A DNA stretch of 64,000 nucleotides from a virus, in the IMG/VR virus record IMGVR_UViG_3300022752_000021, one strand, 5' to 3'. Shown in pieces: positions 35,206 to 52,211 of the stretch (position 1 is the first letter of the stretch; every line of letters begins with the position of its first letter). The notes under the pieces are model-generated. The model worked only from the letters and a program-made list of their open reading frames with translations. It was not told the DNA's origin and did not search any database. Both the position numbers and the translations under genes were made by a program.

Positions 35206-35616
35206 TCATGAGAGCGAAAGAAGACCATGATCAAACTCCCAGTGACAGTTGGGACAAAGCCCAACAATGTTCTTGGGATCATTAATTTCAGAAATAGTAG
35301 CGGTTTCAGGAAAGGCTTTGACGGGTTTGATATGACACATTTCGACATGCTTATCATAACCGCAGTTTTGGCATTTGGTTATGATTCCTTCGAATGCGTC
35401 TCTTGCATGATAGCGGATTTTGGCGTAACGATTGGATACATGACCTCTCTGATAAGTTGATTCTCCTTTGGTGGTGTTTAAACATGATTCTTTCAACTCT
35501 TTCTTGTTCAACTCCCCACAGGGCTTGCAATACTTGCGCCCCGATCCACACCACGCACCACACCGTTTGCACATAATCTTTCTTCTGTATTCTCTGTTAG
35601 TAGTTCGATTTGACAT
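35206..35616 (-). CDS. HNH endonuclease (free-standing, tRNA-adjacent; paralog 1)
   Basis: N-terminal CxxC zinc finger; C-terminal CQNCGYDKHVEMCHIKP...N...LCPNCHWEFDH. Confidence 0.88.
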   Translation of the reverse strand: MSNRTTNREYRRKIMCKRCGAWCGSGRKYCKPCGELNKKELKESCLNTTKGESTYQRGHVSNRYAKIRYHARDAFEGIITKCQNCGYDKHVEMCHIKPVKAFPETATISEINDPKNIVGLCPNCHWEFDHGLLSLS

Positions 35617-35664: not shown

Positions 35665-35735
35665 GCGCTGAGGGCGGACAGTTTCGCAGGCTCGCTTATA
35701 ACGAGTTCAAGCCAGGGCAGCACTGGATCGGCGTA
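35665..35735 (+). tRNA. Non-canonical tRNA-Ile(UAU)-like RNA
   Basis: Acceptor GCGCTGA/TCGGCGT+A; D-stem GCGG/TCGC; anticodon stem GGCTCG/CGAGTT with loop CT-TAT-AA; T-arm CCAG-GGCAGCA-CTGG lacking TTC. Confidence 0.65.
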
Positions 35736-36204: not shown

Positions 36205-36696
36205 TTAGTGGTCTAGTTCCCAGTGACAATTCGGACAAAGAAATGCAATGTTTTTTCTGGAGTTGATCTCTGAAAGCAGAGTATCATCGCTAAAGGATGA
36301 TATTGGTTTTACATGACATAACTCCGTGTGTTTGTCATAGCCGCATTTTTCACAACAATCAGTTTTCCAACCAAACATAGTTGCAAGTCTTTTTCCGTGT
36401 TGCCTTATTTTTTCATATCGGTGCTTTGAGGCATAACTTGAAGAACTACCAACCGAATCTTTTTTTGTTGTCTTGTTTCCGTAGTCAACACAACGACTCT
36501 GTATAGAGCAAGACTTGCAATGTTTAGGTTTGTCAGACTTTTTTCTTCGTGAACACTTTTTACCACATATCACACACTTGTTTTGTGGTTCGGTGCTTCT
36601 TTTTGGAAAAACTTTATTGTTGTGTTTTGCCGCGCAAGATTTTGAGCAAAATTTAGGATTGTTTGTATGTTGTTGGCAGTTTAGACAAAGATTCAT
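36205..36696 (-). CDS. HNH endonuclease (paralog 2)
   Basis: Start at ATG 36696 (MNLCLNC, GGGGGA RBS); NPKFCSKSCAA; CEKCGYDKHTELCHVKP...LCPNCHWELDH. Confidence 0.88.
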   Translation of the reverse strand: MNLCLNCQQHTNNPKFCSKSCAAKHNNKVFPKRSTEPQNKCVICGKKCSRRKKSDKPKHCKSCSIQSRCVDYGNKTTKKDSVGSSSSYASKHRYEKIRQHGKRLATMFGWKTDCCEKCGYDKHTELCHVKPISSFSDDTLLSEINSRKNIAFLCPNCHWELDH

Positions 36697-36706
36697 GTTT
36701 TCCCCC

Positions 36707-36777
36707 GTGAGTATGATGTAACGGCAACATGCCACTCTTCCAAAGTGGCTTTACGGGTTCGAATCCCGTTACTCACA
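36707..36777 (+). tRNA. tRNA-Gly(UCC)
   Basis: GTGAGTA/TACTCAC acceptor; CCACT-CTTCCAA-AGTGG; ACGGG-TTCGAAT-CCCGT. Confidence 0.9.
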
Positions 36778-36822: not shown

Positions 36823-36826
36823 TTTT

Positions 36827-36916
36827 GGACAGATGGCAGAGTGGTCTAATGCTGCGGTTTACTAAACCGCCGATGGTTCTAGAAACCATCCGAGGGTTCG
36901 AATCCTTCTCTGTCCG
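36827..36916 (+). tRNA. tRNA-Ser(ACU), type II
   Basis: GGACAGA/TCTGTCC+G73; GCGGT-TTACTAA-ACCGC; long variable arm GATGGTT..AACCATC; canonical T-loop. Confidence 0.85.
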
Positions 36917-36917
36917 T

Positions 36918-41610: not shown

Positions 41611-42144
41611 ATGAAGTCGTATAGAGAGTTCATTTCAGAGGCAGCAAGCCGTTCCCTTTCCCGTCTACACGGTCATATTCAGAGTGGTCATATGGTGGGT
41701 TTCATCTCAGCAAGCCGTGGGAATCTTTCTCCTGCCGAGAATAATAAGAGGACGAAGGAACTCAGGACAAGCCTCAAGCAGCATGGATATAGTCCCATCC
41801 CTGTAAAGGGTGAGTACATCGAAGACCACAATGGAGAGAAGAAGAAGGTGAAGGAGAAGACCTTCATGATTCACTCTGGTCAACTACCCCTCCGCTCAAA
41901 GAAGGCAGTAGAAGATCATGCAACGCTTCTTAGTGATCTCAAGAAGCATGGGGAGAAGTATGGTCAGGACACTGTTCTCACCGTCTCCAAGAAGCATGGC
42001 AGCGTGTTCCATGGAACTGGCAAGTCTGATTGGGTTCCAAAGGGTAAGAGAGCGCGTATCGGTGGTGCTGGTATCAGTACCAATGTTGGTGACTTCAATA
42101 CACGATTGAAGCGCAAGAAGTTCATAGTAGGTGGAGGTGCTTAA
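41611..42144 (+). CDS. Putative internal head protein with capsid-targeting sequence
   Basis: N-terminus MKSYREFISEA; late promoter; ISASRG...EN..RT..L...L...GY..V.G.Y.E body conserved in T4-like phages. Confidence 0.75.
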   Translation: MKSYREFISEAASRSLSRLHGHIQSGHMVGFISASRGNLSPAENNKRTKELRTSLKQHGYSPIPVKGEYIEDHNGEKKKVKEKTFMIHSGQLPLRSKKAVEDHATLLSDLKKHGEKYGQDTVLTVSKKHGSVFHGTGKSDWVPKGKRARIGGAGISTNVGDFNTRLKRKKFIVGGGA

Positions 42145-43146: not shown

Positions 43147-43605
43147 TCATTTCGGGTGATCGAACAGCCAATGGCAATTTGGGCATAAAATAAGCAGATT
43201 TTCGTCTGCGTTTATTTCCGACAACATTGTCTTTGGATCAAACTCTGATATTGGTTTTCGATGACAAACCTCAACATGCTTATCCCAACCACACTGCTCA
43301 CAAGATTTTGTTTTTGTGGCTTTTGGGGTTGCTCTTGCTCTGCTTCTAACCAGAGCATATGCAGAGGATCGGTGATGTTTTGTGTATATGGCTTCTTCTA
43401 AAGTCATATCTTTCATAAATCTGTTTTCCACAAAGCATTTTTTGCAGTATTTTCTACTGCTACGCAACGGACATCCGCACGAATGACAACTTCCTTCAAC
43501 CGCTCTTTTGATGTGTATCTTATTGTTGGTTGAAGCGGCACATGAACGAGAACAAAACTTTGGATTGTTTGTTTCTTTTCCACAAGCGATACAAATCTTT
43601 GACAT
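43147..43605 (-). CDS. HNH endonuclease (paralog 3)
   Basis: Start at ATG 43605 (MSKICIACG); NPKFCSRSCAA; CEQCGWDKHVEVCHRKP...LCPNCHWLFDH. Confidence 0.88.
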   Translation of the reverse strand: MSKICIACGKETNNPKFCSRSCAASTNNKIHIKRAVEGSCHSCGCPLRSSRKYCKKCFVENRFMKDMTLEEAIYTKHHRSSAYALVRSRARATPKATKTKSCEQCGWDKHVEVCHRKPISEFDPKTMLSEINADENLLILCPNCHWLFDHPK

Positions 43606-43656
43606 GAGACGAACCTCCGTTAGACTACATATATAGTCGAAACGAAAGTTCAACTC
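43606..43656 (-). promoter_or_regulatory. RBS-sequestering hairpin with late-promoter-like TATATATG at the apex
   Basis: Minus strand GAACTTTCGTT pairs with AACGGAGGTTC (11 bp including GU; covers GGAGG); inner GACTA/TAGTC stem. Confidence 0.75.
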
Positions 43657-43663
43657 ACAAATT

Positions 43664-43739
43664 GCCCGTGTACCGGCACCGCCTTCTAAGCGGTAGAACC
43701 GTAACTGGATCGATGCAGGTTCGACCCCTGCCACGGGTG
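43664..43739 (+). tRNA. D-arm-less tRNA-Arg(UCU)-like RNA
   Basis: GCCCGTG/CACGGGT+G; only 7 nt before ACCGC-CTTCTAA-GCGGT; 20-nt variable region; GCAGG-TTCGACC-CCTGC. Confidence 0.65.
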
Positions 43740-43742
43740 CTT

Positions 43743-43925
43743 ATGGCAGACATTCAACAACTCATAGATCGACTGCAAACTGCAAGAGACGAAGTTAGTA
43801 ATCCCCGCGCAAAGATGCATGAATACACAAGCGAGGATCTTGAAACTCTCTTGGTTGATGTCATCTTCGCCCTTCAAGAGAAGACAGAAATTCATTTTGA
43901 GAACTTGACTCAAGGAGCCGATTGA
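43743..43925 (+). CDS. Hypothetical protein
   Basis: ATG immediately after the tRNA-like gene. Confidence 0.5.
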   Translation: MADIQQLIDRLQTARDEVSNPRAKMHEYTSEDLETLLVDVIFALQEKTEIHFENLTQGAD

Positions 43926-51959: not shown

Positions 51960-51972
51960 AAGTTTTGGGTTT

Positions 51973-52045
51973 GCTCCCGTAGCGTAGAGGATAGCGCGGG
52001 TCTTTCCTAAAGACCAGGTCATAGGTTCGAATCCTATCGGGAGCG
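51973..52045 (+). tRNA. tRNA-Arg(CCU)
   Basis: GCTCCCG/CGGGAGC; GGTCT-TTCCTAA-AGACC; ATAGG-TTCGAAT-CCTAT. Confidence 0.92.
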
Positions 52046-52211
52046 TTTGGAGAATTCACAATGCCAAAAGACGAAACTCAAAATGTGGAAACTCGCAAAC
52101 GACTTGATGACATTTACTATGAAGTTCGAATTGGAACTTCAATGTTGGTGTTTCTCATCATCGCAAACATTCTGATTCTTTCTGCTAGTTTGCTTGGCTT
52201 TGTGGTGTGGC

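Follow-up and report, generated by a model that had tools for sequence, protein, structure and literature searches.

Phages carry an apparently undescribed architectural variant of tRNA-Arg with a putatively re-threaded D-arm: a divergent UCU member in a T4-like genome

E. coli argU is a canonical tRNA-Arg(UCU). In the circularly permuted tRNA genes known from certain algae and archaea, the 3′ half of the tRNA is encoded ahead of the 5′ half, and a normal cloverleaf is regained on processing. In a 2024 paper, all known bacterial tRNAs were stated to be cloverleaves (PMC11551756). Allo-tRNAs and tRNA-Sec are natural bacterial and phage tRNAs that lie off the standard cloverleaf (8/4 or 9/3 acceptor/T-stem), and these keep the D hairpin, carry a long variable-arm hairpin and have altered stem lengths (PMC5389517, PMC7609411). 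The D-arm-less tRNAs of metazoan mitochondria, such as tRNA-Ser(AGY/UCU), possess no D hairpin and include one with a UCU anticodon; they are shortened, have lost the elbow contacts between D-loop and T-loop and work with adapted mitochondrial factors (PMC7609411, PMC4013460).

We analysed a tRNA-Arg(UCU) gene located at positions 43664–43739 (+) of a 64,000-nucleotide stretch of phage DNA (IMG/VR record IMGVR_UViG_3300022752_000021, hereafter the window). The gene is 76 nt long and does not encode CCA, which is also absent from all nine canonical tRNAs of the window. Its acceptor stem is 7 bp, with the 5′ strand (43664–43670) pairing with 43732–43738 through a G1.U72 wobble and six Watson–Crick pairs, and the 3′ strand continues into the discriminator base G73 (G43739; 43732–43739 together). 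The anticodon arm (43678–43694) comprises a 5-bp stem (43678–43682/43690–43694) and the 7-nt loop CUUCUAA (43683–43689), with U33, a purine at position 37 and the anticodon UCU at 43685–43687. The T-arm (43715–43731) has a 5-bp stem and the loop UUCGACC, so that these canonical tRNA features, including the UUCGA of the T-loop, are all present. The D-arm hairpin expected between positions 9 and 26 is absent: only the 7-nt linker TACCGGC (43671–43677) joins the acceptor stem to the anticodon stem, and a 20-nt insert (43695–43714) separates the anticodon arm from the T-arm. This layout of acceptor stem, short linker, UCU arm, 20-nt insert and T-arm within 76 nt had been reported in the initial annotation and is confirmed in the letters.

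Comparison with the described systems placed the gene apart from each of them. Canonical tRNA-Arg(UCU), as represented by RF00005 and by the gene of Streptomyces phage Teutsch, comes nearest and shares with it the acceptor stem, the anticodon arm (C32, U33, UCU, A37, A38), the T-arm, U8 and A9, the D-loop motif, a G/A discriminator and, in congeneric phages, the genomic slot. Unlike canonical tRNA-Arg, which has a D hairpin, the arrangement described here as re-threaded would build the D-stem from two strands flanking the anticodon arm, and its D-loop would come after the anticodon arm and lead directly into position 48. The initial annotation had likened the gene to the mitochondrial D-arm-less tRNAs, a comparison that proved misleading: at 76 nt, with a GG motif and a canonical UUCGA T-loop, the window RNA holds all parts of a D-arm, reordered and re-connected. 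The segment order is non-textbook, as it is in permuted tRNA genes, but the acceptor strands are in their normal places and the rearrangement is internal; judged from the sequence, the mature window RNA would itself be non-cloverleaf. Compared with allo-tRNAs and tRNA-Sec, it has 7/5 stems and neither a D hairpin nor a variable-arm hairpin.

Standard detectors passed over the gene. ARAGORN called nine tRNAs in the window, the re-threaded tRNA-Arg(UCU) not among them, and Rfam at gathering thresholds (29 bits for RF00005) left the window copy unreported. Across the wider family described below, ARAGORN called 2/86 members in their own contigs and 0/83 in neutral flanks. Single-sequence folding was uninformative for the window copy (minimum free energy [MFE] −27.3 kcal/mol, z = −1.4), and the centroid structure retained the acceptor and T-arms only.

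To determine the distribution of this layout, we searched isolate phages, uncultivated viral genomes and prokaryotic genomes. BLAST with a 91-nt region recovered the same layout in several isolate phages. These included Streptomyces phages (among them Mildred21, where it is annotated as tRNA-OTHER), the Mycobacterium phages Cosmo and Wildcat, phages of Pseudomonas and Alishewanella, and Bas93, a BASEL phage of E. coli. When a different subtype served as the query, BLAST added a further 150 isolate phages (Escherichia 84, Klebsiella 40, others), almost all of them lacking annotation at the site. The E. coli carriers comprise members of the rV5-like, phi92-like and Felix-O1-like groups in addition to Bas93. 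The isolate-phage members totalled more than 150 (Escherichia, Klebsiella, Streptomyces, Mycobacterium, Pseudomonas and others), mostly at sites without annotation or labelled tRNA-OTHER. IMG/VR was scanned with a pattern of three shared motifs (fixed CUUCUAA, GGA and GUUCGA), which matched in at least 119 contigs. Complementary acceptor and T-stems were found in 109 of the 126 pattern matches listed (100 of the 109 being distinct sequences), demonstrating that these are not chance matches, which would lack such pairing. The same pattern applied to prokaryote genome contigs gave ~7 credible members among 119 matches, all from metagenome-assembled genomes. The family is therefore overwhelmingly viral, and a general cellular tRNA type was ruled out on the same count.

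Together, the pattern scan of viral contigs and BLAST provided 84 distinct relatives. As most of these were gathered with the pattern, conservation of the CUUCUAA, GGA and GUUCGA letters is partly circular. A covariance model built from homologues had been proposed in the initial annotation as a check on the gene, and here it recovered a conserved family. The model (R1), constructed from 19 seed sequences including the window copy, scored members at 48–97 bits and ordinary tRNAs at 34 bits or less, with no overlap (~0.86 Mb searched). Members outside the seed scored 48–92 bits; the window copy scored 90.9 bits (E = 2e−23), a value that is partly circular since it is a seed sequence. No sampled relative exceeds 79% identity to the window copy. 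The window gene is a divergent member of an architectural variant of tRNA-Arg that appears to be undescribed: the full-text literature searched, a body of text to which most subscription journals do not belong, contained no account of a phage tRNA of this kind.

We further investigated which bases of the linker and the insert pair with one another. A first alignment of 77 members was anchored without reference to pairing, the 5′ side being set at a constant distance from the acceptor stem and the 3′ side by the bases immediately preceding an invariant U-A-R. In this alignment, linker bases 4–6 and the three bases before U-A-R were paired in 215/231 cells, compared with 125 ± 7 (maximum 158) in 2000 shuffles. 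Fifteen D-helix types occurred, such as CGG/CCG, CUC/GAG, CCC/GGG, CAC/GUG and GCC/GGC. In the alignment of all 84 distinct members, which is fitted to model R1, the D-helix was 93.7% paired, with changes on both sides in 18, 36 and 35 cells at its three pairs. The remaining helices behaved in the same way: the acceptor stem was paired in 99.1% of cells with both-side changes at all 7 pairs (G.U at pair 1–72 in 21/84 members), the anticodon stem covaried at all five pairs and the T-stem was paired in 99.8% of cells and covarying. All four helices thus covary across the 84 distinct relatives. In the window, linker bases 43674–43676 (positions 23′–25′) are predicted from this covariation to pair with 43699–43701 (10′–12′) as a two-strand helix (C43674–G43701, G43675–C43700, G43676–C43699), just before the invariant U-A-R...G-G-A...A-Y motif. 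The preceding linker base, C43673 (position 22′), faces the invariant U43702 in a non-standard pair, leaving a D-helix of just 3 bp in the window, next to the C.U mismatch at 22′–13′; family counts at this position were U.U 65, C.U 13, G.U 4 and A-U 2. The last linker base, 43677, would by its alignment position be the hinge equivalent to position 26, and the connector AGAA (43695–43698) would correspond to variable-loop positions 44–47. The connector is 4 nt in 41/83 members, and in the window AGAA and U43714 together make 5 nt, as in a class I variable loop.

A second architecture with a UCU loop was observed in six sampled loci (L106, L113, L016, L032, L120 and L127) and ~16 other IMG/VR loci. 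Here, a 9–10-nt linker contributes 5–6 bases that pair with a covarying strand (such as CCCGC/GCGGG, CUUGC/GCAAG, CCUCC/GGAGG) located directly before A-N-G-G-A, with no U-A-R motif, and these loci scored 22–28 bits with R1.

The 3′ part of the insert carries the marks of a tRNA core. Members share the motif U-A-R-N(1–2)-G-G-A-N(1–3)-A-Y directly 5′ of the T-stem, and window positions 43702–43714 fit it: U13′ leads into the D-loop-like element A14 A15 C U G18 G19 A20 U C G A21 (43702–43713 in all), after which comes the U48 equivalent at 43714, the putative Levitt partner of A15. Among the 84 distinct members, the U was present in 84, A14 in 83, R15 in 84, the first G of GG in 84 and the final A in 84, and U8 and A9 (43671–43672 in the window) were each found in 84/84. 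None of U8, A9, U13′, A14, R15, A21 and Y48 was fixed by the scan pattern. GGA was found in 15/15 members recovered without the pattern, though the pattern fixed it elsewhere. The R15/Y48 combinations were A/U 79, G/C 3, A/C 1 and G/G 1, so that the two positions appear to switch together, which is consistent with a Levitt pair, with three switched sequences of which two come from one contig. The loop pattern C32 U33...A37 A38 was conserved in 81/84 members and the UUCGA of the T-loop was invariant, the latter partly because the pattern fixed these letters; the discriminator was G in 41, A in 30, U in 10 and C in 2. The conserved U, A and R, the G-G-A and the final A and Y correspond in series to U13, A14, R15, G18, G19, A20, A21 and Y48, and the canonical tRNA-Arg genes of these phages carry the same A-A-Y-U-G-G-A D-loop. 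The near-invariant motif and its match to a canonical D-loop support the rearranged topology proposed in the initial annotation, with a D-loop-like element 3′ of the anticodon arm.

The same topology was examined by reversing it in silico. Segment 10–21 was moved back to the 5′ side of 22–25 in 83 members, and with canonical order restored ARAGORN called 83/83 (82 as Arg) versus 0/83 in natural order, which again supports the view that the D-loop-like element has been moved. A shuffled-segment control was still called in 55/83, demonstrating that ARAGORN alone is a lenient judge. With an HMM built on 21 canonical tRNA-Arg genes from phages, the canonical-order versions gained 8.3 bits over natural order (higher in 78/82), and the gain over the shuffled control was small (2.4 bits, higher in 72/82). 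Put into canonical order, the window copy reads as a class I tRNA of 76 nt, in which the D-stem has four pairs, one of them mismatched, the D-loop 11 nt and the variable loop 5 nt.

The anticodons of the family were UCU in 77 members, CCU in 4, ACG in 2 and CCG in 1. Members found without fixing the anticodon had CCU (4), ACG (2), CCG (1) or UCU, all of which are arginine anticodons, from two codon boxes. One sampled locus (L068:8183–8420, −) carries three re-threaded genes in tandem (CCG, CCU and UCU) followed by a class II tRNA, and the phage seems to serve several arginine codons by means of the re-threaded architecture. In Mycobacterium phage Cosmo (L003:309–381, +; also in Wildcat), the family member has the loop CCCCUAC, with the anticodon CCU and C at both 33 and 38, and has no annotation in its record.

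Positional evidence for replacement of a canonical gene came from two congeneric Streptomyces phages (Samistivirus). Teutsch possesses a canonical tRNA-Arg(UCU) (L249:231–304; RF00005 61.2 bits, R1 27.5 bits) flanked by tRNA-Gly(GCC) and a conserved ORF, and Mildred21 has a re-threaded gene in exactly this slot (R1 68.7 bits, RF00005 29.5 bits); the T-arms of the two genes are near-identical. Another tRNA was present in the sampled locus for 69/86 members, at a median distance of 180 nt. The sampled loci with members contained 581 called tRNAs, including canonical Arg ACG, UCG and GCG, and no locus with a re-threaded UCU gene also had a canonical Arg(UCU); the sole canonical UCU gene sits in a contig without a family member. 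Among the arginine codons of the window, AGA is the most used (202/564, 36%; 16 per 1000), the sole canonical tRNA-Arg is CCU (51972–52046) and no canonical UCU tRNA was found within its 64 kb, which are a part of the phage genome. The bacterial ArgRS identity set consists of A/G73, A20, C35 and U/G36, with A20 the main determinant (PMC9976931). G43739 (73), C43686 (35) and U43687 (36) match this set. At the level of sequence, A43709 directly follows G18-G19, as A20 does in canonical tRNA-Arg.

The window comes from the genome of a T4-like myovirus and carries baseplate and tail genes and a tRNA cluster; its CobS gene is closest to versions from Pelagibacter and cyanobacterial myophages. It had no nucleotide match in the phage collection, and the 5′ half of the tRNA-Arg(UCU) gene had no exact match in IMG/VR. 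The gene sits in the intergenic region between two divergent neighbours: an HNH endonuclease gene (43147–43605, −; PF13391, E = 4.8e−7), of which the window holds two further paralogues, and a 60-aa ORF (43743–43925, +) with no Pfam match, whose ATG lies 3 nt past the discriminator base. The only relative of this downstream protein (in locus L129, 77% identity) has no tRNA nearby. A sigma-70-like promoter match (TTGACA, 16 nt, TAGACT; 43599–43626, +) was located 37 nt upstream of the gene and agrees at 10/12 positions, weak evidence since shuffles also yield one such site. The three paralogous HNH genes (35206–35616, 36205–36735 and 43147–43605, all −) share 44–45% identity, and each is divergent from a plus-strand tRNA or tRNA-like gene, namely a UAU element, tRNA-Gly(UCC) and the re-threaded tRNA-Arg. 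At distances of up to 400 nt from family members, HNH/GIY-YIG genes accounted for ~9–13/72 ORFs, compared with ~7/72 next to canonical tRNAs, and none was seen in the 25 most frequent of the 40 families matched by 72 ORFs located 2–6 kb away. The idea that re-threading shields the gene from homing endonucleases was rejected, as the association is with phage tRNA regions generally.

Several other elements were observed. The UAU element (35665–35735, +) is a 71-nt cloverleaf-like structure. Its 7-bp acceptor stem contains two G.U pairs, its D-arm is short, its 6-bp anticodon stem carries the 7-nt loop CUUAUAA (anticodon UAU), and its 4-bp T-arm lacks UUCGA. It lies head-to-head with an HNH endonuclease gene, its MFE structure equals the centroid with z only −1.07, and it was undetected by ARAGORN and Rfam and had no match in the phage collection. 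A class II tRNA-Ser (36826–36917, +) has the anticodon ACU in the loop UUACUAA, A34 being unusual in bacterial-type tRNAs except tRNA-Arg(ACG). An ORF at 41611–42144 (+) was assigned by family match (PF23780, E = 2.8e−14) to the S-adenosylmethionine lyases, a known type of phage anti-restriction function. An IMG/VR contig (L001:1611–1853, +) carries two canonical class II tRNA-Leu genes (UAG and UAA) in which a 23-nt T-arm/3′ acceptor string and the 5′ acceptor strand are identical to those of the window tRNA-Arg, a hint that tRNA modules may pass from one isoacceptor gene to another.

Other folds were considered for the linker and the insert. The initial annotation had paired the CCGG of the linker with the CTGG inside the D-loop-like element as a displaced D-stem. 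Four such pairs are possible in the window sequence, and nearest-neighbour energies, which cannot separate the folds and give no preference for the one proposed here, place this fold (−25.0 kcal/mol) close to ours (−25.6 kcal/mol), against −27.3 kcal/mol for the MFE structure. Conservation decides between them. The CCGG:CTGG pairing was formed in 68.9% of cells, its inner two pairs were broken in 40/84 members and its outer two pairs showed no both-side changes, since GG is invariant while the linker varies. The covariation whose absence the initial annotation had named as refuting the idea was thus not found, and the competing helix is 93.7% paired with many compensatory changes. Pairing with CTGG would also take GG out of its elbow contact with the T-loop. 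We regard this fold as very improbable. What stands of the displaced D-stem is that rearranged strands form a D-helix, with 43699–43701 as the partner in place of CTGG. A class II or selenocysteine-like tRNA minus its D-arm, with the 20-nt insert as a long variable-arm hairpin, would account for tRNA-Sec being the best sub-threshold Rfam match and for the 23 nt at the 3′ end shared with the two class II tRNA-Leu genes noted above. The tRNA-Sec match reached 25.3 bits against a gathering score of 47, however, and the family has only arginine anticodons. The hairpin itself was rejected, as only 56.9% of the cells within the insert were paired with essentially no compensatory change, and we find this alternative hardly tenable.

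Alternatives that deny the gene a role in decoding were weighed against the family data. That it is a decaying pseudogene or a by-product of the adjoining homing endonuclease is suggested by the neighbouring HNH gene and by its being missed by standard finders, but is barely conceivable for a sequence with 84 distinct relatives, the nearest only 79% identical, and covariation in every helix; endonuclease genes are, moreover, about equally frequent beside canonical tRNAs and beside members, as counted above. A tRNA-shaped RNA that does not decode, acting as a decoy or sponge for a host tRNA-Arg nuclease or enzyme, or as a processing or regulatory element of the downstream ORF, is a further alternative. 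The gene abuts the start codon of the next ORF, canonical detectors reject it, and the sampled phage tRNA regions carry tRNA-repair genes (RtcB, T4-type RNA ligase) that indicate conflict over tRNAs. A decoy, however, needs no G/A73, no 7-bp acceptor stem and none of the full set of elbow and core invariants, nor would it explain four arginine anticodons in the family or the positional replacement of a canonical Arg(UCU) gene. Members occur in tRNA clusters with varying flanks, indicating that the RNA is not bound to one mRNA, and the nearest relative of the downstream gene is without the RNA. Taken together, these points make a non-decoding RNA unlikely.

We return to a decoding tRNA, and consider it likely from the sequence comparisons that the gene encodes a working elongator tRNA-Arg(UCU) with a re-threaded core, which would read AGA for this T4-like phage. 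After U8-A9, the chain would enter what corresponds to the 3′ strand of an ordinary D-stem (22–25) and pass through position 26 into the anticodon arm. The 4-nt connector would then lead from the anticodon arm into what is normally the 5′ strand (10–13), which would continue into a normal arginine-type D-loop (A14, R15, G18, G19, A20, A21) running straight on to U48 and the T-arm. Three connections would be altered (9 to 22, 45 to 10 and 21 to 48), each of them presumably short in space by analogy with the known tRNA fold, and every local contact would be preserved. An RNA connected in this way should still adopt the L-shape, with G18G19 meeting the T-loop at the elbow and the tertiary pairs U8-A14 and R15-Y48 in place, and should still present the bacterial arginine identity set (A20, C35, U36 and G73). 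This reading starts from a conserved family with covarying helices, arginine-only anticodons and occupation of a canonical slot, and would entail equivalence to tRNA in three dimensions, charging by the ArgRS of the host and use on the ribosome. Re-threading may persist because it would let the RNA elude host factors that recognize the tRNA-Arg D-arm; in the initial annotation, evasion of host anticodon nucleases had been put forward as a possible benefit.

Beyond the window, the family data incline us, on balance, to the view that phages of many lineages use a full-length non-cloverleaf elongator tRNA-Arg that would be L-shaped, charged by host ArgRS and able to decode AGR/CGN. If true, such a tRNA class would be without precedent outside organelles, and it would demonstrate that the L-shape is reachable by a different chain topology. 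It would also represent a natural test of the contacts needed by ArgRS, EF-Tu, RNase P, the CCA-adding enzyme, modification enzymes and the ribosome. Synthesis of t6A37, which is reported to read the shape of the D-stem (PMC13276492), is one example of a factor whose needs the re-threaded core could probe, and the architecture could likewise provide a scaffold for orthogonal tRNA engineering. It would further expose a blind spot of tRNA finders (evident in the ARAGORN calls above), with the arginine decoding capacity of phages under-counted as a result. Finally, the family makes testable the idea that phages change tRNA architecture, beyond sequence, in conflict with host defences that target tRNA.
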